A stretch of DNA of 63,973 nt, filler included, from Pseudovirgaria hyperparasitica (Eukaryota): NCBI GenBank assembly GCA_010093815.1. It is 5 parts of 5 records of this genome, joined end to end, with 100 filler letters (N's around TTAATTAATTAA, not from the genome) between each part and the next. Parts side by side here need not be neighbours in the genome. Positions count along the whole stretch, not along the records: positions 17,336 to 45,239 come from ML996602.1; 4 more parts are not named here. One strand, given 5' to 3'. Below are positions 244 to 53,502 of this stretch, one piece after another; the stretch's first letter is position 1; each line of letters starts with the position of its first letter. Below the pieces are notes generated by a model, which worked only from the letters and a program-made list of their open reading frames with translations, did no database searches and was not told where the DNA came from. A program made the position numbers and the translations under genes.

Positions 244-270
<27 letters not shown>

Positions 271-490
271 TTATATAACTAGGTAGAGTAGTACTCTATA
301 GGCCTATACCTCCTCTACTCTAAGCCACTATGTAAGAAGAAACCCTATAGGGAAAAACTTCCTTATGTCTATAACTATATCTCGTTAAACCTCTATTTCG
401 TCTTAAGTATATAGCTATAGGGTACGCCTATTAGCCTATAGCCTATATTACTATTATTTTACCCTTAGATAGCATGTATAGGTGCGGAGG

Positions 491-521
491 TTATTAGTTA
501 AGGGCTACTCTTAACTAATAA
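491..521. promoter_or_regulatory. Shared palindrome copy 1 (LINE 3' end, contains the ORF2 stop)
   Basis: TTATTAGTTAAGGGCTACTCTTAACTAATAA. Confidence 0.8.
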
Positions 522-3451
522 TCGGGGTTCTCCCGGGGTTCTTCCGGTATATATTAGGTTACTACCAGCGTATACCGGGTCTCTTCTAGTATATATTTCC
601 GGGTCCACTAGTACTAGAGAAGTAGTAGATATATAAGCATCTATCGGGAGACGTCCTTAGGGTACTTATTAAGCTATTATATGATATCTAAAGTCTTCGT
701 AACGTGGATAAGCTATTACCGTTATATATAGAGGTTAGGGTATATAGCTAGATAGTAGCGTATTATACCTCTCCGGCCGTACGCCTTATACTATAGAGAG
801 ATATTAGGAACGCCTCTCTTATAGATATAGTATAGGAGTCCTATGGCGCCCGTTCGGGCTTAGATAAGTATAGATACTTAGGCTTTCGTTAGCCCTTTAT
901 ACATCTATTTACTCGGTTCCTTCTATGGCCCTTAAATCTACTCTAGGTACCTATTCTACTAGGAGGTCTAGTAGGCACGGAGTGTCTCTTTCTACTTATC
1001 TTAAGTCCACGACCGTATGTTTTTCACGAGTTCTTAAAGACTCTACTAGTCTAGAAGAGCGTCCGGGTTATCTCGGACTTCTTATACTACTTAGCTAGAG
1101 TTAGCTTCTATTAAGCACCTATATTATATTCGATTCCGGCCTATATATAGGAGTGCGCGGTAATATATACTAATTCATACACGTAGCGCGGCGAAAGTAT
1201 ATTCTACGTTTCCTATACGTTCCTATACTTATTATTTAGTAAAGTATACTACCCTCTATATCTAGTAGAAGTTATATATACTTATGACGTCTATCTCGCG
1301 TCGTAGTAGTACCATGTTAGTAGCTTTATATACGCCTAATATAAGACGGAGTATACGGTTCTATATGGATTTAAGCTTCATTCGCCTAGTCTATATAAGG
1401 GCCGTATACTAGCACTCGTGTCCGTACGTAAAGGCGGGTCGTGCTATAGATATATATAGCTGGCGTGCCTTATCCCGGGCGGTTCCCTATATAGAGGCTA
1501 TAATCCGTTGTATAGCGGCTTCTATCTAGAGGGCTCTAGAGACGGCGTATACTACTTATGGTCCCTATTTAAGCTTACTATCTAGTATAACTCCGAGCGC
1601 GCGTATACTTTATACTAGTAGTTCGTTAAATGCGTCGATTCGAGGGCGTTATTCGCCTTCCCTAGTTACCTATTTCCCTTAACGATTAATAAAGTATATA
1701 AGCTAGTATTTCTCTAGGGCGAACTTTACTCTATAGCGTTTTACCTACTAGAGGCACCTCTCGTGGTCCTATTCTAGTCGTCTACACGTTCGGTTGGTAT
1801 TATTATCGATAGCTAGGAGGTATATATTATTAGCGTATCCGACTACCTCTATATACTTTATTTCTTAAAGAAGGTCTACCGTAAAGAAGAGGAATAGGAT
1901 TAGAGAGATAGTACTCCCTTATAGGATGCCGTATACCGTCTCTTTATATTCGCTCTAGTACCTAGGGATATATATCTAAGTTGTTCTTCCTATGAGGAAT
2001 GACTATATAAAGCGTATAATCCATTCTAGTATTCGTCTTATCCGGAGGTTATAAATAAGTCTTATATGGTTTACCTTATTAAACGCTCCGGCCATATCGA
2101 GGGAGAGGAGCGATACTATCCGTCCCTGTTTCCATGCGGCCTAGACGACTTTAATAATATATTAGATAGCTATTATTAGGGAGCTATCTACCTTTACCTT
2201 CTAGTTCGGAGGGAGGAGATTATATTTCTATACCGCGGTACTTATCTTCTTTACTATCGTAGCCTCTAGTATCTTATCTAGGTAGAAGAGAAGGGCGATT
2301 AGTCTCTATCCCTTTAGGGAGTTAGGGCTCTTTCCTAGTTTCGGGAGTATAATAGTATAGGCGACTCGGAAGCTCTAGGGGTGGTACCCCTACGTAACGC
2401 ATGCTTAGAATATACGAGTAATAAGCGGTAGGGTCGCTTTTATAGTACTTTTTAGGTATCGATTTAGAATTCCATCTAGTCCGGGTGCTTTATTATTTAG
2501 GAGTATCTTAATAATATTAAGTATGTTCTCCTCCGTAACTTCTTCGGGGATATCTACCACGTATAGATATTTAGCGCCGTGAACGTCTAATAGGTCTACT
2601 AGTTCCGGGAGAGGGAACATGGCCTCCTATAGGGCCTTAGTTTTCTTAAGGCTCGTGGAGTATATTCTTCCCTAATATATTAGGGGAGGTATAAGTAGCG
2701 GGGGTGTCGGAGTGTCTACGCCCTTAGCCCATTTCGCTATACGCCATAGCCCTATTACGTATCATGTCTATTAACTAGTAATTATACGCCACTATTTACG
2801 CCTTTTGTTACGGAGGACTTTATCGCGTTATCGTATCGCTTCCTTCTATTCTTTCTACGACTCGGGTATTCTCGTACGGTATACGCGTATATATAGTCTT
2901 CGGGCGTCTTATCTACTTTCCCGTACTCGAGGAATCCCCTTTACTTCTAGGGGCCGGTATATTTAGTATAGTACGTGTTTATTTCTCGTATTCTAATATA
3001 TTTATAGGAGTATCTATACGGCCTAGTCTATAGCTAGGTCGTTAGATATATCGACTATAGAGGGATCTAGGATCGCCGATTCTAGGTCCTTTAGGTACTT
3101 TTCCTAGTCGGTGTCCTTCTATATCTATTATCCCCGTTGTTTATTCGGGATATACACGTTTATTACGGTTTCCATGTATTCGTGGTCGGAATCCGTCTAT
3201 ACCTAGTCTAGGTAGTAGTATTAGATCCGGTGACTAATATACTCCGTGGCGAAGGTAAGGTTAAGCGTAGACCCGTCTTTATTCTATTTATGTTTTTTCT
3301 ATATAACTTATTCTATAGGTGTAAGTAGATATAGGAAGTCGTGGTAGCGGGTACGTAGTTCCCTTACTCTAAGTTCTTCCCTAACCACGGCTAGGCCTCT
3401 CTACCATTAGTAGTAGAGGTTAAAGTCTCCTAGAAGGATGTGTTACTCTAG

Positions 3452-3822
3452 TGTGATGAGCCATCGCCACGTATATCCCTTTTTATAAATGGCTGTGTCC
3501 TTAGTATAGTAGTCGCGACGAACTTACAAGTATCTCTCCCAGGTATTATAAGTTCTCTTTGAACGCACGACTTCTTATTAGTTCTCTTTTACGATAGGAC
3601 GGGTCTATACAATACTCTTAATCAATTTATTAATAGCTAAGCCTAATAATCAATACCCATAGAGGCCCATGAACGTAAGGAAAGGTCGAATTATCGAATA
3701 TTAGTAATGGGGAAGCGTGTCATCTAGAATGACCAAGGAAAACGCCCTCCTTAAATATATAATGAGCTATGTAATCAAGCTAGGGACATATACATGTAGG
3801 GCTGCAGGAGCGGCCTTCCACA
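3452..3822 (-). repeat. 3' LTR (371 bp)
   Basis: TGTGATGAGCC...GGCCTTCCACA, matching 14496-14867 apart from transitions; polypurine tract GGCCGGGGAGG adjacent on the minus strand (~3826-3837). Confidence 0.92.
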
Positions 3823-14495: not shown

Positions 14496-14867
14496 TATAA
14501 TAAGCTATCGCCACGTATGTCCCTTTTTATAAATGGCTATGTCCTTAGTATAGTAGTCGCGACGAACTCATAAGTATCTCTCCTAGGTATTATGAGTTCT
14601 CTTTAAACGCACGACTTCTTATTAGTTCTCTTTTACGATAGGACGGGTCTATATAATACTCTTAATTAATTCATTAATAGCTAAGCCTAATAATCAATAC
14701 CCATAGAGGCCCATGAACGTAAGGAAAGGTCGAATCGTCGAATATTAGTAATGGGGGAAGCGTGTCATCCAGAATGACCAAGGAAAACGCCCTCCTTAAA
14801 TATACAATAAGCCATGTAATCGAGCTAGGGACACATACATGTAGGGCTGTAGGAGCGGCCTTCTATA
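14496..14867 (-). repeat. 5' LTR (372 bp)
   Basis: TATAATAAGCTATCGCC...GGCCTTCTATA, a RIP version of the other LTR. Confidence 0.92.
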
Positions 14868-15236
14868 CTAGTTCCGTGGTACCCTCGAGCATCTCGTCTA
14901 GTATAAGTATACGTTATTAGTTATATATATTATATATATATAGAGGGCCTATATCTATTTATAGGTGTAGTATTATCCTAAGATTATCGCGCTTAGTATA
15001 CGACCATAATAAGAGTAGTATTAACCTATAAATGTGGAAGAGGACTCGTCTTTCTAGTCCTAGAGGGTATATAGTATAGTATCCGGGGTGTGTAGTTAGT
15101 TTACTCGTCTAGTAGTATTTATAGGGTTCCTAGATAGCGAGTATTATAGCCCTAGTCTCTTCGAGGAGCGTCGCCTAGTTCTCTCTTTTATATTATATGT
15201 TTACCTATATAATTTAGAGTATATTCTAGTCCCTTA

Positions 15237-16685
15237 TTAGATACTAGGGAGTATATATACCTATATGCTTATTTCTTAGAGGCGCGACTATCCTCGCGCG
15301 GTAGCGGCTTTAACTATATCTTTTAGTTATCCTATTATCTTTAGAATAGTCTACTATCCCGCCTAACTACCTTCCGGAGGGGAGGTTAGGGGTGTTATAA
15401 AGGAAGGGCTCGTAGTAGGTATTATATTCTATAACTATCTTACGCCTCTCGCTTTTATCGTGCGAATATATTCTATAACCTATTTACGTTTTATATACGT
15501 TAACGACCATAACGGGTGTTTCCTATTATAGTTTAAACACTATACTATATCTCTATTTCTTAGTCCGTCTCCTCGCGGTTTATAAGGGCACTCCTAGGTA
15601 GCGTGGTCCCTACGGTACTATCCGCACTTAGTCTTCTATAAGTACCTTTATATAGTATGTCTATACCCTTAATAGTTAAAGCACTATATTATTACCCATG
15701 CTCTATCCCATGGCTCGGCTATAAGAAGCTCTCCTTCTATTAGGAATCCCTTCTATATAATATATTATGTAAGAGCGGGGTCTCGGAGCTCCATAATTAT
15801 AGTAGAGTATTTTTTCGCCGTTATCTTAATCGCCTATAGGTTCTTCTACCACGCTTTCATAATCTTAATCCCTAGGTATTTTCGCGTGTTAGATTATTCT
15901 ATACGCGTAATATCCTCCGCTCCGATAGCCTATCCCCGTACGGGTACTACGTATACTATAATCGGGTATATAGCTACCCTAATAGACGCGCTAGGGAAGA
16001 TACTACCTATCGCGTTCGAATCTCGCGAGATGTTTTACTACGTAGTATTCGTTATAGTAGTAAGTACTACCCTACCTAGCGTAGCTTTAGTAGCCACGAT
16101 GCTTAACTATATTCCTTTCTATTCGTTAATCTTATTTATAATTTCCTTTAGGGATGCCTATTAGACCTACGCTAGCGTGTCCTTATCCTAGATTACGACA
16201 CGTATACTATATACTCTATCTATAGTCCTAGTAGTTCTTAGTGCGGTAGCTCCGGGTATTACTATAATCTAAGCCCACGTGTTAGGGCGCTTACCTTAGG
16301 ATAGCTCTTCCTAGATTCTCCATAGACTAGCTTCCATTTAGTCAAGTCTACCACTAGGTTCCTCTCGTAGCGACTTCCTTTCTTCCTCCATAATTCCTCT
16401 TAGGTTCCAGATAAGGTCCCGGAATATATAAAGGAGGGTCTTCTTTCCCTGCTTAGCGTCCCTCTCTATATATATTATCTAGTATTTAATTTTATCTAGG
16501 AGGGTCTCCCCTCTTAGGGTCCCCTTAGTCTAGGTTATCTATAGCGCTTTACACCCTTAGTTAGTTCCTATATTTTAGATAGGTATCTAGCTATCTATAT
16601 TAATGTCGCTATATGGCCGTTTCTACCATACTAGTAGGGGCATATCCGGCGTATACTAGGGTGTTACAATGCCTAAGGCCGCCAT
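15237..16685 (-). pseudogene. LINE copy 1 ORF1 (gag-like, zinc knuckles)
   Basis: ATG at 16685 directly after the palindrome; degenerate Cys/His knuckles at ~15540-15690; stop overlaps the ORF2 start (TAATA, ancestral TAATG). Confidence 0.75.
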
Positions 16686-16687
16686 AG

Positions 16688-16718
16688 TTATTAGTTAAGG
16701 GTAGCCCTTAACTAATAA
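16688..16718. promoter_or_regulatory. Shared palindrome copy 5 (LINE 5' UTR, 2 nt before the ORF1 ATG)
   Basis: TTATTAGTTAAGGGTAGCCCTTAACTAATAA. Confidence 0.8.
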
Positions 16719-16955
16719 AAGGGGGTCGGCGTATTAGCGTTTATTAGATATAGTCTATACTCGTGTTATTAAAGAGTCTTCGAGCGTATGTATATAGTAT
16801 CTCTATACGTTAGTATCGTCGCGTATTATACGCTATACGTACGTACGTGTATCGGAGGTTGTTATACTCGGTATACTCTATCGTTTGATGTATGTAAATC
16901 GCTGTTTTACCGCGAATTAACTAGTTTAGTCCGTTAGGGTGTGAGAAGTTTTTTC

Positions 16956-17235: not shown

Positions 17236-17335
17236 NNNNNNNNNNNNNNNNNNNNNNNNNNNNNNNNNNNNNNNNNNNNTTAATTAATTAANNNNNNNNN
17301 NNNNNNNNNNNNNNNNNNNNNNNNNNNNNNNNNNN
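17236..17335. other. Artificial contig spacer (also 45240-45339, 61119-61218, 62746-62845)
   Basis: 100-bp block of N with central TTAATTAATTAA, which has stops in all six frames. Confidence 0.95.
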
Positions 17336-17996: not shown

Positions 17997-19405
17997 TCAA
18001 TCTCTTGCTACATGATGTTCTTGTTTCAATGGCTCCAGTGTATTCGCCATAATAATAGAGATTGTCAGCGCGAATCTGGACCATGACCAATTTGGTGACG
18101 CGCTCGACTCTATGTAGACGTTACATGCACCAAATTTGATCGCCCTTGCTTTCTGATGTATAATTGACCTTCGAAATCCCTCAATCTCGCGCTTTAGTAT
18201 GGAGTTTTCAGTGCGCAGGTGCTGGAAGGCGGTCTCAAACTTGCGGAGTTGTTCTGCAGTCGCAGCGTCTATTACCTCCTTCATGACCCCTGAAAGGAGT
18301 GTTCGAAGTTGCTGCTCGCCACGAGGGCCTAGGATCTTTGTAATAATACTTCCTGAGTCAGAAGAAGATGGACGAGGTTGTTCTAAAGAAGAAGTAGGCC
18401 TGGATGGAGGCTTCTTAAGCTGGTTAAGGACAATCGACGGATCTGACGGTATTACACCTGTTTGGCGCCATGCAGACATTATATTGTCTACGGTAAATGC
18501 TCGGGAATATGCATTTTTGTAGAATCTATAGAAATCTCGTTTTGAGATGCATCTAATGGCTGCAGGCGATGGGTGGCATGTGGAGGAAACACTGCGACAA
18601 GAATCTTATGTCCTTACCTTCTTCTTGGTATTCTGATCGAAGATTTGGTGAAGCCAAACGAGTCCTAGCTCATCTGTAATCCATCCTTTAGGCGATGAGG
18701 TAAAGAACTCGATATCATCTGGTTTCCAGTCGCACATCCAGGAGTCCTGCAGATCGCCACTTTTGGCGCGGTAAATGAGACCACTTGGTATAGCAGTTCC
18801 GTCGCCGCATATACAGCATAGGACCGTAATCCATTCTCGATTACCATCTTGCGCGTTTCCTAGAAGCTTCTTATTCTTTGCTGCTTTCTTGGAGAAGATC
18901 CTGCGCGTCTTGATGCCAATTCCGATCATGAAGCCTTTCTCATCGAAATTGTACATATTATGCGGCTCAATGTTGTATTCCTCTATTTCTGCCTTATAAG
19001 GTTAAAATAGGCTAGGTAATCGATGTAGTTGTCTGCCTTTTGTCTGCTTCGATCGATAGGGGTAAGGTATCGTGAGTCCAACGAATCGCTATGAGTACGC
19101 GTTTAGGTCGAGATCTAGTTCTTTGAAGGCTGTTTTCCAAGAATAGTAATTGCAAAGTTAACTACCATAGCAGGAGTAGGAGGGAGACCTCGATCTGAGA
19201 GTCTTTTGACGTGTTTGAGTAGATAGGCGTCTTGGGTGTTGTTCATGAGTCGCATGTCGCGCGCCATTTGCTGCCGTGAGCCATTCACGCGACGGTGACG
19301 TCTAGATAACGTAGAACGCGCTACACCGTATTCTTTCGCAGTTGCAGTATAATCAGGTGTATCCTGCAAATCCAACGCTGCAATTGCAGCCTCAATTGCG
19401 TCCAT
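17997..19405 (-). pseudogene. pogo/Fot1-family DDE transposase with internal deletions
   Basis: HTH region AKEYGVARSTLSRRHR and RLSDRGLPPTPAMV; YNFDEKGFMIG; NREWITVLCCICGDGTAIP; SSPKGW; split over several frames, part of the catalytic core missing. Confidence 0.85.
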
Positions 19406-20190
19406 ATTGGTGGAGATGTTACGTGTCAAAGTTCGCGACTCATACGGGAATTCGTGCACACTAGTTGATGGGACGAGGAGCGTTCCCGTACGGAGACGTG
19501 ATGAACTGTTAGTAAACTTCCCGTGCGGGGTCGTTCTATGAGGACCTTTCCCGGAAGCCCAGTTCCATTTTCAGATGTTCTATTGATAGAAGATCCGTAC
19601 TGGGCGATGGGACGAGGGCCTTTCCCGTGCGGAGACGCGATAAGCTATTAGAAAGTTTCCTGCGCGGATCAAGTCTATAGGAATTAGTTCAATCGCCCAT
19701 ACTCTACTCAAGCCAGCCCGAGATTAGAAGGGAAAGGTCCGCACCGAGAAGATGTAAGCTATCACGTAAGGACCCGTGCGGATTATCTAGGTATGATGAC
19801 GGTATCAGCATGGCTGCGGAATTTGTCTCTAAGAGGCATTCAACGATTGGATCGGATCAACATCACTAAATTGAGGGTCGCAGAGAAGGGCAACTAAACT
19901 AACGTTAAGTTCTATTTGGACTTAACTCCAGATCTTAACTTAGTTATTGCGTTCTGAGAGTCATTCAATTCTCATTCGAAGTCAGCCGTTGCTGATTTCT
20001 GCATGATCCTCATAGCTTGCCGGACCTGCATACTGAGTCCTATCAATGCGAAAGGACTTCCGCACTAGAGAACGGACCGTGGGGAAATCCCTGTGCGCCC
20101 CGTACGGATCCATTCTATGAGGACTTTCCAGTAAACTGCACATTAGTCAAGGCGGGCGGGTATGAGGGAGGCGCGGGCATATCATGACCA

Positions 20191-20949
20191 TTAGAGAGAA
20201 CACCCGCACCTAGCGGTGATTGTGCTTACATCGCCTGCTTCGACGTCGAGACCAGTGTTCGACAAGGCGAACGAATCGATAGCCCCATGGGCTTGAGGGA
20301 TTGCACGATTGTGAGCTATACCGTTCCGTCCGTTGACTCCTTGAGTTCCGCTGGGGACACAAAGTAGTGGGATGGCTTGCTCGATCGATGAAGGCGCTTC
20401 GGGCAGGTCCTGAGAGCTCTGCAGGCGGCTCTCGCCGAAGGAGCGCTCCTCGTTTCTCGAGCCACCTTGCCATGATGGGAATTGGAGTTGCGACAGAAAG
20501 ATGTTGCGCCCTGTAGACAGCGACCAATTCCTAGATCGCTGCTGGTCTGTCTGGTGGAATCGGAAGTCGCTAGAGCGTGTGAAAGAAGCCCCCGCGTCTT
20601 GGGCCAGAGTGCTGGAGAACATGCTGAAGGGTGATCGTATTGGTATGGAGATGAGTCGAGGAAACGCGAAGGGCCATGGTCTGGTAGACAGCGGACGCGG
20701 TGCCATCTTTATACCCTCCCTAAACGATCTCGTCGTGGCTGCCGCATGCTTCCCAGGCGGAGCCACGCCCCTGACGAAGCAGTGCTGTCCAGGTGCAGCA
20801 ATTATTAGGGCCGGCAGACTGTCCTCCTTGAAGATAAAACGCCGAGATGCGAGGCGTTCCTGGCCTATCGTTTCTACTTCGTACTGGAGTGCATCAAGTC
20901 GTGAGGTAATGCTATTTGACGATTGGACCAGCCTGTCGCAAACTCGCAT
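20191..20949 (-). other. Long ORF (252 aa), hypothetical; an overlapping 200-aa ORF lies on the + strand
   Basis: ORF length only; no recognisable motif; coding strand undetermined. Confidence 0.2.
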
Positions 20950-22387: not shown

Positions 22388-24772
22388 TCATGCTGCGCTC
22401 AAAGCCCTCAACGCATGTAGTCTCTCTTGCATGAATGCTGCGGGCCCAGGAGCACCTCTCGTGGATCTCTTGTCTGTCTGTCTCTTCCGCTTACGATTTG
22501 GAGACAGTTCTTCAAGGGGAGACCTCGCCTCGAGGACGAGCGCCCGCTCAAAGTCAATGACAACCACTTTTCGCTCAGCTGATTTCCACAGGAGGTTTCG
22601 CAGCGTGAGATCGCGATGTAGCACCCAATGTTCATGGATAGAGCCGATTGCACGTTCGACTTGTTTGTGGATTTCGGCCAAGTGATTCGATAGGATCCCT
22701 CTCGAGACCTTCACGCCACCAAAGCTCATGAACATCATATGTGTCAGCTCCGCGATGCCGTCATATTCATAAGGCTGCGTGAGATCGATGTTCCCCAGGT
22801 GTACCGGCACATGTTTTCCTTGGATCGAGCGCAAGCAGTCGTAGACGGCAGCCTCATGTTTGAGATGGCAGATAAATTCAGCCGGCGTACCCTTGGCCGC
22901 AACAGTATATCCATGCGAGGTGAGGCAGATACGGAACAGGACACCGCGGGAGCCATGGATACGCAGGCAATCAACGTCATGGTCCAGATCCCTGGAAAGC
23001 TGCTCGTGCATGAGACGGAGAAAGGCTGATCGGTCGATCTGGTGAGTGTGCCTTCCATGTGCCTTGACATTGGGACATTTGTGGTCCAGGGGCCCACGCA
23101 CGAGGAGGCCTCGCAGACACTCCGAGGTGCAGTACTGCCTCTCCTTGCCTTGGTTTGAGGCACCAGTCCGTCCCGCTGTCGTTTTGGTCCTGGACGATCT
23201 CTCTTGATTCGCTCGTCGCGATGCATGTCGCCTCGTAGCAGGCGCAGGCGTGTCTGGGTCCGGTTCGGTGTCGCTACTGCTCCGATCATGTGGCTGTGGA
23301 GAACTACAAGACGTCGAGGGACGTGATGGTCGTGGTCGAAGCTGGATCGGGCAGTCTCTGAGCTGGGTCGTGCGTGAGGGGGGTACGTAGTCTGACGTGA
23401 GGCGTTCTGGGGTGGGCACTTGGTCGAGCAGCTCCTCATACGTGATCTCCCAGGGCACAAGCAAGCTACGCGCATCGCTCTTCCACTTCTGACTCCGTGG
23501 CGTACTTTGAATCGCCATCAACGTCAACGCTAACATACGTCCAACAGCAGTCATGTGCAGGCAGTTGGGCTGGTCCAGTGCTGGCGTCCAGCCAGTTTCC
23601 AGACCAACATCGTGTTTGGGCACCGAGAGGTGATAGTATACAGTCCTGGGATCGTCAAGGACCCGAAGAAAGATGTAGGCTTCGCCTGTGCAGACGCAAC
23701 CGTACTCCACTCCAATCTTGATCATGTAGGAAAATGCCTGGACGATGATTGCGGCGACCAATCGTTGCAACTTCGCCTCCACGCCTTCGTTATCCTTCAC
23801 CTGCACTACCTCATCTAGGTCCATCTCTTGCAAACCTGCGCAGATGCATGCCAGTGAAACCTTATGCGGCGCTTTGTACTCAATGATGTACGCCGGTTGA
23901 CGGTATGATTGATCACCCGAATCGACGTGGTAGACGCAGAATTGATCGGCACGGGGCCGGGAAGATTTTGGTCCTACTGCGGCGCTCTGTGCTGGAGGGG
24001 TGGGATGCTGCAGGGATTGGAGCCTGGCCGAACGACGTGGTGCGCCAGAGATATCCATAGCCTGAACAGCCTCTTCAATCTGACTGTCCGAGCTTAGAGT
24101 GTTTCCATGATTTTCAAAAGTCACCGAGCCTCTGAGGCCGAAGGACTTTCGAAGCTCGTTCTCATCCGTGATAGCAGTGACGACCTCAGAGATAGGATTC
24201 TCCACTGTCAAACGCTGGAAGAAAGTGAGGTCTGGCTCCGAGCTGCAGAGTCTCGGGCCCACGGATTGACCCAGCTCTTCTAGTGTGTTTATGGAGGTGA
24301 ACTGACGCGTCTGAAAGAAGTTCGAGTCTTGTAGCTTGGCCCAGATGAATTCCTGCTGCTCCTCGAAGTCCAGCCAGTGACGTATATAGCGTGGACGTAA
24401 TTTGCGCTGGGCATTGTCAGGATTGCCTTGAGTGGAACGTGAGGCATCGGTTTGGACAGTGAACCCCAGGGAGAGATGGGTGTGACAAGTATGGAGATAT
24501 TCGGAGAGTGTAGTTTTTCGTGTTCGTTCTTCTATATTGTTGCGCGCACGTTCTGCCTCCTCTTGGGCGCGTTCTGCCTCCTCTTGGGCGCGTTCTGCTT
24601 CCTCTTGGGCGCGTTCTGCCTCCTTACGTCGCCGTTGCTCTTCTTCACGTCGCCGTTGCTCTTCTTCGCGTCGCCGTTGCTCTTCTTCGCGTCGCCGTTG
24701 CTCCTGAAAGTAGAGCTCTTTGTAGTCAGGTTCGTCCATGTCTGCTGTGGAATCTGTACACAGGCTCGCCAT
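22388..24772 (-). CDS. Spok (spore killer)-family protein: coiled-coil repeats, PD-(D/E)XK nuclease-like domain, Cys cluster, kinase-like domain
   Basis: Intact intronless 794-codon ORF. Heptad repeats EEQRRRE and AERAQEE; KTTLSEYLHTCH; RADQFCVY...IIEYKAPHK; YCTSECLRGL...KCPNVKAH; VAAKGT; VLHRDLTLRNLLW...VVVIDFERA. Domain order matches Podospora SPOK proteins. Confidence 0.85.
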   Translation of the reverse strand: MASLCTDSTADMDEPDYKELYFQEQRRREEEQRRREEEQRRREEEQRRRKEAERAQEEAERAQEEAERAQEEAERARNNIEERTRKTTLSEYLHTCHTHLSLGFTVQTDASRSTQGNPDNAQRKLRPRYIRHWLDFEEQQEFIWAKLQDSNFFQTRQFTSINTLEELGQSVGPRLCSSEPDLTFFQRLTVENPISEVVTAITDENELRKSFGLRGSVTFENHGNTLSSDSQIEEAVQAMDISGAPRRSARLQSLQHPTPPAQSAAVGPKSSRPRADQFCVYHVDSGDQSYRQPAYIIEYKAPHKVSLACICAGLQEMDLDEVVQVKDNEGVEAKLQRLVAAIIVQAFSYMIKIGVEYGCVCTGEAYIFLRVLDDPRTVYYHLSVPKHDVGLETGWTPALDQPNCLHMTAVGRMLALTLMAIQSTPRSQKWKSDARSLLVPWEITYEELLDQVPTPERLTSDYVPPSRTTQLRDCPIQLRPRPSRPSTSCSSPQPHDRSSSDTEPDPDTPAPATRRHASRRANQERSSRTKTTAGRTGASNQGKERQYCTSECLRGLLVRGPLDHKCPNVKAHGRHTHQIDRSAFLRLMHEQLSRDLDHDVDCLRIHGSRGVLFRICLTSHGYTVAAKGTPAEFICHLKHEAAVYDCLRSIQGKHVPVHLGNIDLTQPYEYDGIAELTHMMFMSFGGVKVSRGILSNHLAEIHKQVERAIGSIHEHWVLHRDLTLRNLLWKSAERKVVVIDFERALVLEARSPLEELSPNRKRKRQTDKRSTRGAPGPAAFMQERLHALRALSAA
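24545..24702. repeat. Two adjacent 21-bp coding tandem arrays in the coiled-coil region
   Basis: (GCGCGTTCTGCCTCCTCTTGG) about 3.5 copies, then (CGTCGCCGTTGCTCTTCTTCG) about 4 copies. Confidence 0.9.
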
Positions 24773-25361
24773 ACCATCGATGTAAGCAGTTCGCTCAGAC
24801 TAGCCTACCCTGATATTCCGAAGATTTGCCGCATACATGCCTGTGTGTATGTTTCTAGGCACATCAAGCAAGCCATGCTGAGTATTCTACTTCTCCATAT
24901 CGAGACACTTGATTACCTCAAGACGCAATTTCTTTCTTGAACAATTCATACTTAAGCCCTATTTCTTATTCGAAGTCGCGTAAAAATTAAGTAACTATTG
25001 GATCACAAACGTAGAGATCACTGTCGACCTAGACCCCTCGCACATCCACGGCCCTCTTCTGAGCTTTCATCGTGTCGATATTAGTCGACGAAGCTCCTTG
25101 TCCTTCAAAGCGATTCCCCGTCTACGATTCCAACTCCTCTATCTTTGACAACGCCTTTTCTAGTTCCGTTTCAAGATGAGCTATCCTCTCTTTGCGTCGC
25201 TGCCGAAAACGAGCCGAGGCGTCTGCATTCCGTTTGCATTTTTCATCAGCCTGCTTCGAACCCGTTGACCGTTGGTAGCGCTTCGTCCAAGGCGTTGGCC
25301 ATGTGGAGCAAGGCCCGAAGACAGCTTACGTCGCTTATTCGGGTCATACACTGACTATGCT

Positions 25362-25450
25362 ATGCAAGGCTGGAGTTCTGACTCTACCCACTCCCCCTAC
25401 CTGTGGTCTTGCGTACTCGTCCCAATTCGAAGACGCTATCTCAAGATGTA
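25362..25450 (+). repeat. 89-bp segment duplicated at 61945-62033
   Basis: ATGCAAGGCTGGAGTTCTGACTC...CTCAAGATGTA, one mismatch seen. Confidence 0.9.
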
Positions 25451-25689: not shown

Positions 25690-26333
25690 AGAGATGCAGC
25701 TTTTCTCGCTTGGTCTATTGATCGACTGGCGTTCATATCGGCATCCCGTCTTCAGTTCCAGGCGAGAACGAGGATATACTGCTACAGGAGTTTCGTTCGA
25801 TCCAACCTAGGCCATCATTCCTGTCATGGTCGGCCTGAGTAGAAGTATATGTGACCGTGCTAGAAAATGTGTAGTTTCTCGGACACACTAGAGGGATGCG
25901 TATGATTAACAGAGTCAAGTCATAAGCATCTCAGCGATGCGGAGAGGCTGCCCTGCGAAAAGTTACTCTCCCACATCCTGCTTAAAGAACAGTATGAGAT
26001 TTCTCACTAATATATGAGGAATGTCAGCATTACACCACGAGCTTACGACACTCGCATTGAGCATTCTACGGATCATTAAGTTCTCTTGGCATTATTAGAG
26101 ACCCTAGAATGGTTCAGCTAGCCTGGGTCACAAACGCTATGTTGACCTCCTATTCAGATTTTCAGAATGGTTCTATCTGTAACGCCGGAACATTAGTCTT
26201 GACCCCTGATAGACAACCCGGCACGGACAGGCTACTGATCTGATTTGGTCATATACGGGATCAAAATCAAGTCCTCCCGCTCGAGGATGTCCTGGTCTAG
26301 GCGGTACTGATATTGGCGTTGTCGGAACCTAAC
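25690..26333. repeat. Inverted duplication of 42956-43810; this copy has internal deletions
   Basis: ORF-track peptides 25733-25918(-) and 43472-43720(+) are nearly identical; nucleotide match extends to both ends. Confidence 0.9.
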
Positions 26334-34772: not shown

Positions 34773-35178
34773 CTCCATCTAGCCAGGTGAAATCAAAGAC
34801 ATTTGGCTTCTAGAGTCATAATACAGCCTCGGCTTCGGATCTCTTTAGCCTCACCCGCTTCCCTCGGACAGCGTTACCGCTTGGCAACATCGCAGGAAAT
34901 GATTTTCGCATCATTAATCATCTCGTTGAACAGTACAAGCTCCTCGTCCCGGGAACACCAGTGCTCTACTAAAGCCAACGAGTTTTCCATCCAGGTAATC
35001 CCTTGCATATATTTCCTCAGTCCGTGGCACGTAAAGGCTCAATCATTCCTTCATCGTTTATGGAGCCAATCCACGGACATAGCCGGTAGTACCCTCACGC
35101 TCAGCTCTCTCATCGGTAGTAAGATCTGCGACCGCCCGGTCTACACGAACAAACATTACCACAATAAGCAGTGAGGTA
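34773..35178 (-). repeat. Inverted copy of the MFS gene 3' end and downstream DNA (40298-40600)
   Basis: Near-identical peptides in the ORF track (TSLLI.VMFVRVD.AVADLTTDERAEREGTTGYVRGLAP); this copy keeps ~105 bp absent near 40441. Confidence 0.9.
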
Positions 35179-38715: not shown

Positions 38716-40418
38716 ATGCTACCGTCCTATACGACTGAGAGAAACATACAAACTCTGTCCACAAGCCTCGACTGTGCTGTAGAGGTGCAGTCTCCGCAGG
38801 AACTGCTCCTGCGTGCAGGTCGTTCGAGGCCTGCCGAATTCACATCCAGAGGAAAGGAATTCGGATTCGTCTACGCAGTGGTCATGTCACAGGTCCTGAC
38901 AGAGTACTTCACATCAGGCTTCAATGTGATTCTACCAAAGATCACGTTGGCGCTTGAGATCCCGCTAGGAAAGCAAACGTGGCCCGCTTCAGCTTTCCCT
39001 CTGACAGTGAGCGTTCTGTTACTACCCTTTGGACGACTCTCAGGTTGGTCTAGGACATAAGGCTCGTGACCATCACTCATCGATATCGCAGACAAGTACG
39101 GTGGATTTCCCGTCTACGTCTGAGGGCTGGCTTGGTTGGCGCTATTCTCGGGTCTTGCTGGGCTCTCACAAAATGAGATTCTCCTCAACGTCTACCGGGC
39201 CCTGCAAGGGCTTGGCCTGGCCGCGTCTCTACCATCCGGTCTTATGCTCATAGGCAGTACATACCGACCTGGACCCCACAAGAACCAGATATTCGCACTC
39301 TATGGCGCTGCAGCTCCTCTTGGGTTCTTCCTTGGTATCCTTACTGCAGCGTTGTGCATCCGATACGCTACCTGGGGGCTGTACTTCTACATTGGAGCAG
39401 GTATATCAGCTTCGACTGCAGTAGTCGCCTACTTCACAATTCCTTCCGACACTTCACAGAGAAAGAGTATGAAAACCAGTCTAGATATTGTCGGTTGTGT
39501 CCTGCTTCCGGCTACTATGATCGCGATCATCTTCGCAATCACCGAGAGTACCAGTGCCCCCAGAGGATGGAGATCCGTGCATGTTGTGGGTGCATTTGTT
39601 GCAGGCTTGTTGCTTCTAGGTGCTATGGTCTACTACTAAGGGTGGCACGCTGAGCATCCACTCCTACCTCCAACCATCTTCCGAGTGAAGTACATGCGGC
39701 CCATTTCTCAAATGAATCGCTGAGTATTTATATGCTATACTGCACCCTCTAGTAGGTACTGTAACATTTTCCCATATATTTGACTGACGAATAGATAGTT
39801 TGGCGAAGATTATGGATGCATCACCGTTGCAACTTGTCGTATGGTTCGTCCCAATGGCGCTTGGTGGTATATTCATTTCACTACTTGGCGGTCGTGTTCT
39901 ACATCTTGTTCCAGGGAGCTATATTATGGTTGTTGCTGGTGTTGCCTACGTCCTCGCTCCTCTGTTACTCATACTTGCTCCCCCAGGAGCCAGCTACTGG
40001 CACTACGCTTTCTTTGCGATGGTTTTTGCAACTATCGGGATTGATACGACATTCACAGTATCGAACGTCTTTGTAGGTCTTTATCCCTCCCGCCTAGAGC
40101 CTAGCCTAATCCATATAGTTGACAACCCATGTCCCGATTCAACATCAAGGGGCTGCTGGAGCAATCAGTGGAAGCCTGGTTCACCTCGGCGCTGCGCTTT
40201 TCCTAGGAAGTGCAAGTATCATGTCGGTCAGGAAGCAGCCTGAAGGAGAGCTCCAGAGCTTTAAAGCAGTCTTCTACCTAGAAACTGCTCTGGCCGCTAC
40301 CTCACTGCTTATTATGGTAATGTTTGTTCGTGTAGACCAGGCAGTCGCAGATCTTACTACCGATGAGAGAGCTGAGCGTGAGGGTACTACCGGCTATGTC
40401 CGTGGATTGGCTCCATAA
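38716..40418 (+). pseudogene. MFS drug:H+ antiporter (DHA2, Atr1-like), probably a pseudogene
   Basis: LLLPFGRLS/DKYGG, YRALQGLG, GAAAPLGFFLG, HPLLPP motifs; introns present; in-frame stops TGA (39121) and TAA (39637); apparent deletion near 39700-39760. Confidence 0.85.
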
Positions 40419-40699
40419 ACGATGAAGAAATGATTGAGCCTTGTTCAACGAGATGATTAATGATGCGAAAGTCATTTCCTGCGATGTTGCCAAGCGATAA
40501 CGCTGTCCGAGGGAAGCGGGTGAGGCTAAAGAGATCCGAAGCCGAGGCTGTATTATGACTCTAGAAGCCAAATGTCTTTGAGTTCACCTGGCTAGATAGA
40601 GCTTTGACACCAAGGCAGTTCAACAGAATTAATCTTGTCGTTCGCACTTTTGGATACTCCATAATTCTACAACTGTCTATCACAAGTCGAGAGAATTCC

Positions 40700-41631
40700 T
40701 CAGCCCCAACGAAGAATCGCTGTACTTGTCATTACCGTGAAAATTGCCGGTATGAGTGCGCCAATGCTTAGACCCTTCAAACTACCGTACCTCAAGTCAA
40801 TCCATGACGGGAGCAAATCCGAAATGCTACCAAGCTTCGATAAAAAGCCGAGTATCACCGCGAAGATCATAAGGCAAAGCAAACTGAAAAGGAGCGTCAC
40901 CCCCCCTCTGACCTTCTTCGAGTCTAGACCTGGGACACAGATCAAAGTGCGTTGGAATGNNNNNNNNNNNNNNNNNNNNNNNNNNNNNNNNNNNNNNNNN
41001 NNNNNNNNNNNNNNNNNNNNNNNNNNNNNNNNNNNNNNNNNNNNNNNNNNNNNNNNNNNNNNNNNNNNNNNNNNNNNNNNNNNNNNNNNNNNNNNNNNNN
41101 NNNNNNNNNNNNNNNNNNNNNNNNNNNNNNNNNNNNNNNNNNNNNNNNNNNNNNNNNNNNNNNNNNNNNNNNNNNNNNNNNNNNNNNNNNNNNNNNNNNN
41201 NNNNNNNNNNNNNNNNNNNNNNNNNNNNNNNNNNNNNNNNNNNNNNNNNNNNNNNNNNNNNNNNNNNNNNNNNNNNNNNNNNNNNNNNNNNNNNNNNNNN
41301 NNNNNNNNNNNNNNNNNNNNNNNNNNNNNNNNNNNNNNNNNNNNNNNNNNNNNNNNNNNNNNNNNNNNNNNNNNNNNNNNNNNNNNNNNNNNNNNNNNNN
41401 NNNNNNNNNNNNNNNNNNNNNNNNNNNNNNNNNNNNNNNNNNNNNNNNNGTTTTAGAGTCAGTGCTGGGCACCGCGTCAGCCAAAACATGTCTTACCTTG
41501 ATGATTGCGATGCCCTCGCGAAGCACTCTCTTATTTGTAGCAGCGTATAGCGATACTAGAAGACAAGCCAAGGCGGCAGCACCCAGGCCAACAGGCATGA
41601 GGCGCTTCCAGGGATACACGCGGGTCTTCAT
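40700..41631 (-). CDS. Membrane protein spanning an assembly gap (possibly SUR7/PalI-like)
   Basis: N-terminal TM segment LGAAALACLLVSLYAA and two C-terminal hydrophobic helices on either side of ~490 N. Confidence 0.3.
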
Positions 41632-42266
41632 GGCTAATGCGAGTTGAAAGCTGGGAACTTAAGTCCTGGGAACAGAGCAGGTGTGTCAAGATCAATACAT
41701 GGCCCAGTATCGATTGGGCCGAGAGTTTGATTATATATTGAGGCCACAGCCCAAAATTGGGTTTGTATCTTAAACGCCCTGGAAAAGACATATATCGAGC
41801 ATGGGGACCTAGAGCAGCATGCATCTTCGAATCGGGATGCGTACGTAAGTCCTTCCTGTGACTAAAGAGAGGGGGTCAGGATTCCGGCCTTTCACTACGA
41901 AAGCGAGGCTGCCAAGAACTTACTGAGCTTCCTGCGCGCCCTGTAGCTCTCATCACTGCAAGTGTTAAGCAACTCTATTCGACGGATCGAAGCAGCAGCC
42001 TTGTCCGTCCCAGTTCGACCTGTCTCCGGGACTCGCGCCACTCGCGCCTTCTAGGTCCGCTGGCCATGCCTGTATAGTGTATGTCTCCTGAGAGCGATCA
42101 GGCATGTCGTTCACGATCCGCTCTAGGCTGTTGCACCATCCTTGCAGGAGATACACCATAGATATATCGCTCAGTAAGATTATGACCTAACCACGGCTCA
42201 CGGCGAAAGCGCTCATTGAGGAGGCTCATACTAGTCCTGTCATGTAGATCTTATCCCTCGACCAAT

Positions 42267-42767
42267 ATGGCCCAGAGCTCCCACCAAGATAGTATCGCTA
42301 GACACGAAGTCGATATACTTCAAGAGAGGACTGCAAAGTTCCTAGGAAAGGCAAGAGTCTTGCTTGATTCTCTACAGTTTCCGAAACAAGTGTTGGTCGA
42401 TCTACAACGACACAATGTCGACCGGCTGAAGCGGGTGTTTGAGCTAGAAGGCTGCCGACGTCTAGAACCTGATCGTCATATTCCAGCACTTATCGACGCA
42501 AAGGACCTCCAAAGTGCACTTGAATACACCGCAACCGACCATGTCACATCAGAAACTCTGCTCGATAATCCAGACGCACTACCTCCCCTCTTGAAGCTGC
42601 CATCGCATCTCTCCATACAATGCTTGCGAGGAAAGCATCGTGTTACCGCAGCCAAAGAGACGTCAGTGCTAGAAGCGACTGATAGGTGGTGGATCGTTGA
42701 CCTGTACTCTGCTGGTAGGTTCATGTCGCTGCCAGCCGTTTCTGCACCTGAACTCGAGCCTTCCTAG
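42267..42767 (+). pseudogene. DUF3723-family protein, first exon only (Starship-associated gene family)
   Basis: FLGKARVLLDSLQFP..NVDRLKRVFELEGCRRLEPDRHIPALI..PPLL..IQCLRGKHRVTAA..DRWWIVDLY, then GTAGGT..CCTAG intron; no downstream exons recognised. Confidence 0.75.
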
Positions 42768-42955: not shown

Positions 42956-43810
42956 GTTAGGTTCCGACAACGCCAATATCAGAACCGTCTAGACCAGGAC
43001 ATCATCGAGCGGGAGGACTTGATTTTGATCCCGTATATGACCAAATCAGATCAGTAGCCTGTCCGTGCCGGGTTGTCGCACTCCAGCGATATGCTGCGTG
43101 CGCCCTGTGAGAAAGTCTAGGGTCAAGACTAATGTACCGGCGTTACAGATAGAACCATTCTGAAAATCTGAATAGGAGGTCAACATGGCGTGTGTGACCC
43201 AGGCTAGCTGAACCATTCTGGGGTCTCTAATGATGCCAGGAGAACTTGATGATCCGTGGGATGCTCGATGCGGGTGTCGTAAGCTCGTGGTGTGATGCTG
43301 ACATTCCTCATATATTCGTGAGAAATCTCATACTGTTCTTTAAGCAGGATGTGGGAGAGCAAATCGTGGCGCAGAGAAGCGTTTTACATTTCGTAGCGTA
43401 AAAATCGAGACACAAACTCCCGAGTAACTTTTCGCAGGGCAGCCTCTCCGCATCGCTGAGATGCTTATGACTTGACTCTGTTAATCATACGCATCCCTCT
43501 AGTGTGTCCGAGAAACTACACATTTTCTGGCACGGTCACATATACTTCTACTCAGGCCAACCATGACAGGAATGATGGCCTAGGTTGGATCGAACGAAAC
43601 TCCTGTAGCAGTATATCCTCGTTCTCGCCTGGAACTGAAGACGGGATGCCGACAATGTCTCACTTCCACCCGAATATGAACGCCAGTCGATCAATAGACC
43701 GCGGATCCACAACACCCTGACAGCTCGATCAATGAGCAAGAGTCACCATCTTCGGCACTGGGAATGATGCTGGTGAGTATTATGAACAAGCGAGAAAAGC
43801 TGCATCTCTC
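42956..43810. repeat. Longer copy of the inverted duplication (partner 25690-26333)
   Basis: Direct comparison; retains four blocks missing from the partner. Confidence 0.9.
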
Positions 43811-46156
43811 CAAGATGAGAGATTCTCAAGCATGAATTTCATAATTTAATAGGCATATCTCATTTCGTTAGCCGAACACGCAGTCCGAAATTTCACGTGT
43901 CTGAGTGTTAAGCAAAGCAAACGTTCCAGCTCCCCTGCAGACTCATGCTCTTATAAAGCGACGGCATGCATCCCATTTCCAAGCCCATGTTCTCCACCTC
44001 GCCAACCATGTCCAGATTCTCAGTCTCGCTGTTAGCCAGCAAGTTGACCAGCGCTTCGTCCCGAGGAGCGCGGAATGACACAGGGATACGACACAGTCCA
44101 GTTGCATATTTGTTTGGCTCGCTCATGGAGTCTCACCCATTCTACATATACCAGACATTGCAAGAGGCTACAGCGCAATTGTCGAAGACCCCTTCGAACA
44201 GGAATTGGACTTGAGCGGGTACGGGACATGTCAAATCGCTGGAGAGACCAAATGACTACGGGAGTGGTTATATTACTTAGACTTGAAAATAGCGGTGCGC
44301 CCTCAATGGCGTGGAATCGGGTCTCGACCCTGCCTTACTTCAATAGGGATATATATATAAGAGTCGTCTAGGCGTACGAAAATCTTCTATATAAACTTAA
44401 ATTTACCGTATTTTTACGCTACTTCTTCACTCCAGACAGACTATCTACTAAACTTCAGTTCAACTGAGTCAACTTCAATTCTACTACTAGAACTGACAGC
44501 CCGGTTCAAATATACCGCGAGGTAAACTAAAGTGCTTCAGGAACTGAACTGTTTGTTTTATAGGATATTGACATGAGAAATCGAGGCTCTTACCCAACCG
44601 CAAGACGTCCCCAATGATGCTAAAATCGTCTTGAGCGCCCTTCCACATTACGGCTATCTTTAGTACCAGGAAGAAAAATGGGCCGGACCACAACCAGTGC
44701 AGTGTATTTATGTCTGCTATGATTATGAGACAGCAACAGACATCGAGCACATCATCTCCGAGATAGACTCCTGTCGAGAACAGCTGCATACGACGACCCT
44801 AGAGAGACTGGTAGAGGAAAACATGAACTTGGCGCAGCAGATCCGCATGTATCGTATGTATTGCGACTCGATCCAGCGAGCATCAGATATTGCAGTATTC
44901 CCCGGCGTGAACAAATTAGATTTAGCTGGATATGAATAAAAATCCATGTTACTGCCTGCCTTTAGTAAGTGTCAAATTGGAGAAGCAGCTTAACCAGACA
45001 GAGGACTAACCAAGGCGAGAAAGGAATACATGCGGTGTCAGGGCGTTGTTAGCAGGCATGATCATGGGAAGTGAGCATACTTTCCATGCCAATCGACTCA
45101 ACTTTTTATTAGACTGCCAAATGGGAATAGTATACAACAGCTGGCGTGTAAATTATTTGTAAAGCGTGATGCTTTCATGCTGAGTCCAAGCGGTGAATCC
45201 CTAAAACGGATCGAATAGGATAGTCAAGAAATCCTTTCCNNNNNNNNNNNNNNNNNNNNNNNNNNNNNNNNNNNNNNNNNNNNTTAATTAATTAANNNNN
45301 NNNNNNNNNNNNNNNNNNNNNNNNNNNNNNNNNNNNNNNTCGATTATAAAGAGTAATAGAATAATAAAAAGGGTGCTAGGGGTAGTAAGAGTAGCGCGCG
45401 TGTTTAGCTAAGGTAATATAATACTAATATAAGACGGGTTCTATCTATAGTATATTAGTATATATCTAATTCTACTAGCTATATAACCGTAGCGTGTATA
45501 TTTAATTAAGATATTAATATACCGGTATAAGCCGGCGTCTATCTATTTTATATTAGTATACGCCCGGTTCTACTAGCTATATTATTACTATAATTATATT
45601 TATATAAGATCTATACTAATAATTAAACATTTACTTATATACTTTACTTTCTCTATACTTTACGAAATTATATTATAATTAGTAAACGCGGTAACTTAAT
45701 CTCTACTATCTAAATATAGTTTTTAACTCTTATTACTACTAACTCCGTCTTATTACCTATAACCTAAGTTATATATAGGAATATATAAGTATAGCGAGAG
45801 TTACGACCGTCCTAGCTTAACTACTAGCTATAGAATAGCTAACTATAATATACACGTATAATATATAGAGGCCTTAAGTATTAGCGCCTTTCTACCGTAT
45901 ATCTAGTATCTCTAAGGCCTATACTAACTATCTAAAATAAGTTATAGTATATATAGAGATACTATTATTAAGATAGTACGCGGAAAAGTATTATAAGAGC
46001 TTAAAAATAGTAGTATAGACGCTACTATACTTATTAGAATAGTTAAGAAAACTATTACTAAAGAATTTAATTAGTATATCGCGGCTATAGATAGTAAGTT
46101 AGTACTAATAGTTATAGCTATAGATACGACGAAGGCTAAACTAGATATAGATATAT

Positions 46157-47790: not shown

Positions 47791-48661
47791 ATAGAATAAA
47801 TATCTTATTTCTCTTTATATATAGATATATATAGATATATAATTATAAGTAAATAGTAGTTCGTATTTATACTACTATACTATCTAGTCTCTTAGAAGCT
47901 AATTAACTAACTACCTTACTTACTTCTATACTACTATATCTCTATAGAATTAAAGCTTACGCCTATTACTAGTATATTAGGTATAGCTATCTCTACTATA
48001 GCTATATCTTCTTTTTCTAGGTCTAAGGCTTATATTCTTATGCTTTTAATTATCTTATCTAACGTGGTAAGTCTAGCCTCGACCTCTAAATAGTCTAAAA
48101 TTAAAGTATACATATATACTATAGGCTGATATTATCTATAGCGATAATATCTTATACTTACCTATGGCCACGTCTTCTTATATAAGCATTAGTCTACTAT
48201 TACTATAAAACTAGTAATTATTAGGTCTTATCCTTCGTAGATCTATAAAGCTAATACTAGTAGAATATATAGAGAATCCGACTTAGTTAACCTAAATAAT
48301 CTATATACCTTATTTAATTCGGATATACTTAGGCCGGCTAGTAAATATACTAATATTTTCGCTTATATATATGGACGTAGTACCTATATATATTAGTAAA
48401 TTACGTTACTAGTAGATAGTATAATAATAATAATAATAATATTGTATAACTAGGTAGAGTAGTACTCTATAGGCCTATGCCTTCTCTAGTCTAAGCCACT
48501 ATATAAGAAGAAACCCCATAGGGAAAAACTTCCTTATGTCTATAACTACATCTCGTTAAGCCTCTGTTTCGTCTTAAGTATACAGCCATAGGGTACGCCT
48601 ATTAGCCTATAGCCTATATTACCGTTGTTTTACCCTTAGGTAGCACGTATAGGTGCGGAGG

Positions 48662-48692
48662 TTATTAGTCAAGGGCTACCCTTAACTAATAA
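48662..48692. promoter_or_regulatory. Shared palindrome copy 6
   Basis: TTATTAGTCAAGGGCTACCCTTAACTAATAA (keeps the unmutated GTCA). Confidence 0.8.
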
Positions 48693-51600: not shown

Positions 51601-51988
51601 CTAGGAGGATGTGTTATCCCGGCGTTGTGGTACCCTCTAGTATATCGTCTGGCGTGAGCGATCGCTGTTAATTATAGATATTATAGATATGGACAGGCCC
51701 TATGCTTATCTAGAGATGTAGCGTCATCCGGAGGTCATCACGTTCGGTATAAGACCATTCTAAGAGCGGGATTGACTTATATATATGAAACATGACTCTC
51801 CTATCCGGGCCCGTAGGGTGGATGGTATAGTATCCTAGGTATGTTGTTAGCTTGTTGGTTTGGTAGTGTTTATATGGTTCCTAGATAGCTATTATTACGG
51901 CTCCTATCTCTTCTAGGAGCGTCGCTTGGTTTTCTCGTTTGTATTATACGTTCGCCTATATAATGATAAGTGTATCTTATGCCCTTAT
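48686..51988 (-). pseudogene. LINE copy 2 ORF2 (endonuclease-RT, 1101 codons, no obvious RNase H)
   Basis: AI*EPY, LGDFNLHH, DSDHE, GYADDTY (~49992-50011), C-terminal Cys/His motif; ends PDY* inside the palindrome. Confidence 0.88.
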
Positions 51989-53469: not shown

Positions 53470-53471
53470 AA

Positions 53472-53502
53472 TTATTAGTTAAGGGTAGCCCTTAACTAAT
53501 AA
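53472..53502. promoter_or_regulatory. Shared palindrome copy 7
   Basis: TTATTAGTTAAGGGTAGCCCTTAACTAATAA. Confidence 0.8.

Follow-up and report, generated by a model that had tools for sequence, protein, structure and literature searches.

Among the single-gene killers of filamentous fungi, Spok genes are understood best, all functional data coming from Podospora and a few Fusarium genes, and the question raised by the locus described here is whether the dothideomycete Pseudovirgaria hyperparasitica carries another such gene that may still be at work. We analyzed a window of 63,973 nucleotides from this species (GenBank assembly GCA_010093815.1), by which we mean the whole stretch of five assembly pieces joined end to end. 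In it, an earlier note had picked out one open reading frame (ORF) on the minus strand as an intact Spok-like driver candidate among decayed neighbours. The position and intactness of this ORF were confirmed: it is unbroken and the only long one in the window. It also proved to be a full-length Spok-like homologue, with the published order of domains and all the residues that have been mutated in SPOK3 and SPOK1. We lean towards reading it, by analogy with these proteins, as an intact, intron-less member of the Spok family (SPOK2_N plus a small kinase-like domain) whose single polypeptide would combine a toxic and a protective activity.

The ORF carries no intron and is not mutated by repeat-induced point mutation (RIP; composite index -0.74), and 794 open codons would arise by chance with a probability of about 6e-18, given how often stop codons occur in its own assembly piece. 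Amino acids (aa) 45-794 are identical to the P. hyperparasitica NCBI protein EJ05DRAFT_269824 (P0002 in our protein set). The public model departs from the ORF solely at the 5' end (region 24700-24780, minus strand), where its ATG lies 4 nt upstream and in a different frame, a shift that is corrected by a GC..AG 'intron' placed within the tandem repeat; this intron is probably false. We preferred the continuous ORF because its N-terminus fits those of two paralogues and because false introns are frequent in Spok annotations, as reported for Fusarium (PMC12693581); an alternative start codon, M12, may be the true one (Table 1). Sequencing runs were also compared with the gene. DNA run X1, which bears the same organism label, showed no differences in the gene body, and the same held for X3 and X4, two runs of unknown kind. 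No joint of the kind an intron would leave was seen in the contigs of X3 and X4, which span the ORF and break off between 24755 and 24880, where X1 continues. Run X5, under another organism label, yielded contigs that cover parts of the gene and its two flanks and are 90-97% alike.

A functionless ORF, whether as a copy that died recently or as an artefact of annotation, is very improbable. Such a view could draw on the different 5' end of the public model, on the closest paralogue (P0003), which lacks 27 residues of conserved domain 1, and on the matching runs listed, none of which is recorded as RNA. However, the 5' end of the public model is probably explained by a false intron, an open frame of this length is hardly a product of chance, the catalytic residues are all retained, and the core alignment is complete, with 3 gaps in 722 columns, which is the family median.

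Membership of the ORF in the Spok protein family is well supported, since the predicted protein has the layout of SPOK3 and its motif residues vary little or not at all across 120 close and 226 diverse relatives. The close relatives are the best 120 matches listed for the window protein, and the alignment of 226 proteins takes in Fusarium, Beauveria, Colletotrichum and Leotiomycete members. In the precomputed Pfam column, PF27653 is assigned to P0002 (as PF27653.1) and to all 120 listed relatives. This family, named SPOK2_N in the Atlas, is found on 98%, 95% and 99% of the members of the three nearest Atlas clusters (52, 422 and 2593 members), and the assignment for our ORF was taken over from the precomputed entry of P0002, with its Atlas name; the InterPro entry of the Spok family is IPR052396 (PMC12693581). 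The Fusarium poae protein FPOA_13328 (P0406), which represents a cluster of 75 sequences, aligned with the window protein over aa 84-761 (247 of 718 positions identical, E 8e-116) with all motifs in register. Its first ~20 residues agree, by eye, with the readable beginning of the FuSpok1 row shown in the supplementary alignment of PMC12693581. When 1.84 billion representatives were searched exhaustively, 751 clusters passed E<=1e-30 and 1679 passed E<=1e-10. The Spok family is thus very large, the window gene is one of thousands of homologues, and as such it is an ordinary member of a known family. Podospora proteins were absent from the best 120 matches listed for the window protein, for a Xylaria homologue (P0008) and for the representative P0180.

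The conservation profile of the protein consists of three conserved blocks with two variable linkers between them, as in the description of SPOK3, and the motifs quoted in the earlier note (D...ExK, CxxxC..C..H and HRD..N..DFE) are all present. The 'coiled-coil repeats' reported there stood as heptad repeats, encoded by two arrays of 21-nt units; a coiled coil is no likelier than a single charged helix. The heptad stretch is 78% E/R/K/Q/D and has 5 bulky hydrophobic residues in 67, and with so few of these the region is as likely to form a single charged helix. The arrays (24545-24703) are nearly pure E/R/Q/A and closer to ER/K single alpha-helices than to a classical coiled coil. Among 120 homologues the length of the N-terminal region varies between 0 and 198 aa. 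Contigs of X1, X3, X4 and X5 skip 21, 42, 63 (64 minus 1) and 84 nt within the arrays, which is not evidence of repeat-number polymorphism because short-read contigs collapse such repeats. Conserved domain 1, which follows, had no match in PHROGs.

The nuclease-like domain contains the strings RADQFCVY...IIEYKAPHK (D276, E298, K300) and VQAFSY (Q345, Y349). Each of these five residues is present in all 120 close relatives, and in the 226 diverse relatives they are kept in 211 (D276), 217 (E298), 220 (K300), 222 (Q345) and 209 (Y349). In the C-terminal part, C552, C566, H572, H577, K627 and E640 are found in 120 of 120 close relatives and D721, N726 and D740 in 119, 118 and 119, while C552, C566, K627, D721 and N726 are shared by all 226 diverse ones. 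The kinase signal was weak: at aa 695-752 Pfam gave Kdo with 22.0 bits (cut-off 21.3) and Pkinase with E 1.2e-5, matches to kinases in the PDB were weak, and profile matches to Bud32, Kdo kinase and MAD6 stayed below their cut-offs. The domain appears to resemble small eukaryotic-like kinases (Kdo kinase, Bud32, MAD6), in agreement with Vogan et al. A basic patch near the C-terminus is a possible nuclear localisation signal.

Table 1. Features of the gene and of the other parts of the window, in window coordinates.
Feature	Position	Strand	Details
Spok-family ORF	22388..24772	-	794 aa from M1; stop codon 22388-22390
Alternative start codon M12 (MDEPDYKELY...)	24737..24739	-	fits N-termini of both paralogues better than M1
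Tandem array, 21 nt x 3.7 copies	24626..24703	-	encodes EEQRRRE heptads
Tandem array, 21 nt x 3.6 copies	24549..24624	-	encodes AERAQEE heptads
Conserved domain 1 (aa 84-232)	24077..24523	-	covered by PF27653 SPOK2_N by name
Nuclease-like domain (aa 271-445)	23438..23962	-	D...ExK and QxxxY motif residues
Nuclease-like codons	D276 23945-23947, E298 23879-23881, K300 23873-23875, Q345 23738-23740, Y349 23726-23728	-	
Linker (aa 446-543)	23144..23437	-	S/P/R/T-rich, poorly conserved (conservation profile)
Cys/His cluster C548-x3-C552-x13-C566-x5-H572-x4-H577	23042..23131	-	motif string CTSEC...C...H
Kinase-like domain (aa 578-750)	22523..23041	-	HRD721...N726...D740FE, K627, E640
Kinase codons	K627 22892-22894, D721 22610-22612, N726 22595-22597, D740 22553-22555	-	
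Basic patch SPNRKRKRQ	22478..22504	-	family consensus keeps NRKRKR
Pogo/Tc5-like transposase relic, frame-broken	18000..19570	-	DDE_1 and weak HTH_psq match
Tc1/mariner-type relics, RIP-mutated	31.4-33.6 kb	.	Pfam and RIP indices; same piece as gene
MFS transporter fragments	39124-40415	+	three ORFs in different frames, successive parts of MFS_1 profile
DUF3723 N-terminal stub	42186..42764	+	profile positions 1-82 of 508; beyond 490-N gap, 17 kb from gene
Artificial spacers N44-TTAATTAATTAA-N44	17236-17335, 45240-45339, 61119-61218, 62746-62845	.	4 matches vs 0.01 expected by chance

How such a protein might act is suggested by work on its relatives. In SPOK3, K240A abolished killing and left resistance intact, and the D667A and Cys mutants were toxic unless the wild type was present (PMC6660238); SPOK1 D680A is reported to cause K247-dependent DNA damage in Escherichia coli and yeast (PMC9972908). 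By analogy with SPOK1 and SPOK3, the nuclease-like domain with D276, E298 and K300 would damage DNA, and the Cys/His cluster (C548, C552, C566) together with the kinase-like domain (D721) would neutralise the damage, so that cells or spores losing the gene would be harmed and carriers would be safe. We infer from this analogy that both activities work. Loss of residues across the family was uneven, with the antidote-side residues present in 226 of 226 proteins and the toxin-side residues D276, E298 and K300 lost in 15, 9 and 6. This asymmetry is what would be expected if loss of the antidote were lethal and loss of the toxin tolerated, and it would fit toxin-antidote logic.

The genome of P. 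hyperparasitica holds three diverged Spok paralogues, the window gene among them. The two closest agree most in the nuclease domain (90% identity), followed by the kinase (78%) and domain 1 (60%), and least in the N-terminal repeat region (42%). In a tree of 54 sequences (IQ-TREE quick search, LG+G4, midpoint root, no Podospora row) two groups were well supported, one with Fusarium, Beauveria, Colletotrichum and Xylariales proteins plus Leotiomycete and lichen proteins, the other with Dothideomycete, Eurotiomycete and further proteins. The window protein belongs to the latter, in which it and the other two Pseudovirgaria paralogues group together (support 99) close to Cladosporium and Coniosporium, and the history of the gene looks like local duplication followed by divergence. 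Elsewhere in the tree, homologues from the Sordariomycetes Xylaria polymorpha (P0008) and Diaporthe sp. (P0006) nest among Pleosporales proteins and are 88-93% identical to three of them (P0029, P0023 and P0009), a likeness that suggests either a recent transfer from one class to another or contamination.

Several observations weigh against a working toxin-antidote gene. The window gene lies in the major clade opposite the Fusarium, Beauveria and Colletotrichum homologues, which makes it a distant relative of those that have been tested by experiment, and it falls outside the Sordariomycete group placed with the Podospora genes in the Podospora-type clade (clade II of Vogan 2019). The closeness to Podospora SPOK1-4 suggested by the earlier note is thus not upheld. 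The proposed homology to SPOK1-4 rests on the Pfam family name, on one Fusarium homologue, to which identity is 34%, and on motif spacing. Even there the last His follows at x4, compared with the x7 written for SPOK3, and among 300 relatives fetched the spacing is x4 in 168 and x7 in 18. Domain 2 of SPOK has been described as matching HsdR by HHpred (Vogan 2019; PMC6660238). For our protein, a PD-(D/E)XK fold gave no signal in Pfam, PADLOC, NCBIfam or PHROGs, and the nuclease-domain profile had no match in the PDB at E<=10. With hhalign the probability was below 1% both against EcoKI HsdR (aa 1-270 and 1-450, shallow templates) and against an HsdR N-terminal profile of 34 sequences, likewise a shallow template, which were drawn from 42 near-full-length loci (44 in total) after exclusion of near-duplicates and two short loci. 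Codon changes relative to X5 count in favour of the gene, though as no more than a weak hint of purifying selection, with 13 synonymous and 6 non-synonymous codons among the 21 differences listed inside the ORF; the hint is weak because 106 further differences lie beyond those listed. X5 is also possibly a mixture of organisms. Conserved residues do not guarantee activity: when six Fusarium homologues were expressed in yeast, two were reported as toxic (both from F. poae, with the Asp mutated) and four had no effect (PMC12693581).

The inert Fusarium proteins also speak for a resident homologue that does not drive, kept by purifying selection for a host function such as DNA-damage signalling or non-self recognition, or retained as a resistance-only copy. 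We regard this as possible, if doubtful. The single clade formed by the Pseudovirgaria paralogues within a mostly Dothideomycete group agrees with vertical descent plus local duplication, homologues of clade I that occur as single copies are, as Vogan et al. suggest, not drivers (PMC6660238), and the published description of Pseudovirgaria is of a hyphomycete that parasitises rust sori, in its asexual morph (PMC3317363). The surroundings of relatives point the same way. In 49 of 63 metagenome loci (at least ~5 kb long) we collected 96 non-redundant flank ORFs of at least 260 aa; they include housekeeping genes (MCM10, galactokinase, Spt5 and N-myristoyltransferase), and none of the 96 is a DUF3435 or DUF3723 gene. 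The same flanks hold NLR-type genes, HET domains, APH kinases and two transposases, and at L058/L060/L062/L064, L048, L089, L088 and L102 the NLR-type (NACHT, WD40, TPR, Ank) or HET-domain genes lie less than 10 kb away. Against a non-driving role stand the retention of D276, E298 and K300 together, each of which 6-15 of the 226 relatives have lost, the location on a small, repeat-rich scaffold with transposon relics and no housekeeping neighbourhood, and the three diverged paralogues, which resemble the multi-copy pattern tied to driving clades in the description of PMC6660238.

The asexual description of the host bears on where a killer would act. In F. oxysporum, a spok gene on a Starship is reported to limit the loss of a dispensable chromosome, with killing that needs hyphal fusion (bioRxiv 10.64898/2026.10.04.756499). 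By the same token, the three Pseudovirgaria paralogues could form an active toxin-antidote set outside meiosis that kills nuclei or fused hyphae losing repeat-rich accessory DNA, with the diverged N-terminal repeat and domain 1 (42-61% identity vs 90% in the nuclease) setting mutual specificity. This proposal is improbable as it stands; if true, the Dothideomycete/Eurotiomycete Spok clade would be a second, independently evolving killer group. A sexual stage may also have played a part in this lineage. RIP is linked to the pre-meiotic stage, and the strong RIP signatures in the window suggest that the Pseudovirgaria lineage has or had a sexual phase.

The association with Starship elements, which the earlier note had brought in from Podospora, found little footing at this locus. 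None of the 423 stop-free, N-free frames of at least 45 aa outside the ORF, taken from all five pieces, matched DUF3435 in Pfam, the tyrosine-recombinase captain that Starships carry at their 5' end, and the single Starship-associated family found was an N-terminal stub of DUF3723, downstream of which the Pfam frame scan gave no further DUF3723 signal. To be called a degraded Starship, a region needs three or more matches to the conserved genes DUF3723, FRE, PLP and NLR (Gluck-Thaler et al., PMC9156397), and one was found here. We consider it quite unlikely that a degraded Starship carries the gene as cargo and that the gene has survived by hitch-hiking with the element or by stabilising it. 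The stub does lie on the gene's own piece, and DUF3723 is a conserved Starship accessory gene (PMC9156397). In addition, a ~0.6-kb segment at 25712-26333, 1 kb upstream of the gene, recurs inverted at 42956-43700 adjoining the stub with 86-91% identity, a link between the two that is suggestive at most. Spok homologues have been reported on numerous Starships (PMC9156397), and 33 of 408 Fusarium homologues lie within known ones (PMC12693581). These points are countered by the missing captain, by one conserved family where at least three are required, and by the relatives, whose flank ORFs lack both DUF3435 and DUF3723. On a piece of 27.9 kb that is broken by a gap, the ends of an element would not be visible, and a captain may lie further off.

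The same piece sets the limits of what can be called the gene's neighbourhood. Artificial spacers separate the five parts of the window, so that the physical surroundings of the gene are positions 17336-45239 only, a small repeat-rich scaffold of 27.9 kb with a gap of 490 N. The picture of an intact gene among decayed neighbours was correct as to the intact, RIP-free ORF and the relics on its own scaffold, and was overstated otherwise, as several scaffolds are combined in the window: the retro-element relics at 1-17 kb and 45-61 kb, which are heavily RIP-mutated, belong to other assembly pieces, and the gene itself lies within a stretch free of RIP signatures from ~17.3 to 29 kb. On its own piece it is accompanied by a pogo-like relic, which by tblastx resembles, in several frames, an intact transposase of metagenome locus L073, and by Tc1/mariner-type relics; nothing else in the flanks of this piece matched the 63 metagenome loci by tblastx. 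The MFS fragments may be exons of an ordinary intron-bearing gene or parts of a broken one, and the 3' end of this gene (40298-40601) is duplicated in inverted orientation at 34773-35178 with 97% identity. A 67-aa frame at 25125-25325 (minus strand), 350 nt upstream of the ORF and on the same strand, matched bZIP_2 weakly, at E 2.9e-4 and below the cut-off.

Other observations concern repeats and minor frames across the window. Read depth of X1 is 3-6 times higher at 25.3-25.8 kb, which marks this segment as a dispersed repeat, and 89 nt within it (25362-25450) recur with 99% identity at 61945-62033 on another piece. Direct repeats of 364 nt (3456-3818 and 14500-14863, 94% identity) flank an insert of 11 kb, which splits one copy (250-3445 plus 14876-16953) of a 5.3-kb repeat found whole on another piece at 48421-53737. 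With weak copia-gag and reverse transcriptase (RT) signals, this arrangement looks like nested, RIP-mutated long terminal repeat (LTR) retro-elements. The ORF scan returned seven ATG-initiated ORFs of at least 200 aa, with the Spok ORF as the sole long one. Three were artefacts that overlie the 490-N run at 40960-41449, and a 243-aa ORF (22744-23475) was rejected as a gene, being an alternative frame within the Spok ORF. The remaining two, of 252 aa (20194-20949) and 200 aa, overlap one another at 20.2-21.1 kb; neither had a Pfam match, and the former had no usable Atlas match. Rfam and tRNA scans across the window found nothing.

The interest of the gene lies in its clade, which is large and made up mostly of Dothideomycetes, Eurotiomycetes and lichen-forming fungi, and for which no functional test turned up in the literature searched. 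An intact copy with every key residue kept is a clean candidate on which to ask whether toxin-antidote activity exists in that clade. If the clade is active, many of the 'hypothetical kinases' known from clinical and plant-associated moulds would turn out to be selfish killers; an inactive clade would mean a second, non-selfish role for the Spok family.

The closest known systems are SPOK1-4 of Podospora comata and P. anserina (Grognet 2014; Vogan 2019), which share with the window gene the order of parts and an intron-less ORF, as judged from their published description. SPOK3 is described as having an N-terminal coiled coil encoded on a DNA repeat of variable length, a domain 1 of unknown function, a PD-(D/E)XK motif at 219-240 including K240 with QxxxY at 294-298, and a C-terminal part in which C493, C497 and C511 belong to C-x3-C-x13-C-x5-H-x7-H and D667 is the catalytic Asp of a kinase-like domain (PMC6660238). 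The C-x3-C-x13-C spacing of these cysteines is identical in the window protein, and the third Cys and the catalytic Asp are 156 residues apart in SPOK3 and 155 in ours. The window protein differs in an N-terminal part longer by ~60 residues (K300 vs K240), in the K-to-Q spacing (45 vs 54) and in the last His (x4 vs x7). The hosts differ as well, ours being a dothideomycete described as an asexual morph, and no Enterprise-type carrier was found on the 27.9-kb piece. With many FuSpoks, as reported in PMC12693581, the gene has in common a small repeat-rich scaffold and a public model with a false intron; it differs from them in its 34% identity and in its place in the other major clade, and toxicity has been shown for FuSpok1 and FuSpok2. 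More remote are the wtf drivers of Schizosaccharomyces pombe and the toxin-antitoxin and restriction-modification modules of bacteria, which work on a similar principle, in that poison and antidote are linked and losing the gene carries a penalty (PMC6660238, PMC9972908). These systems are unrelated in sequence, and the window gene would differ from them in holding both activities in one polypeptide made from one transcript.

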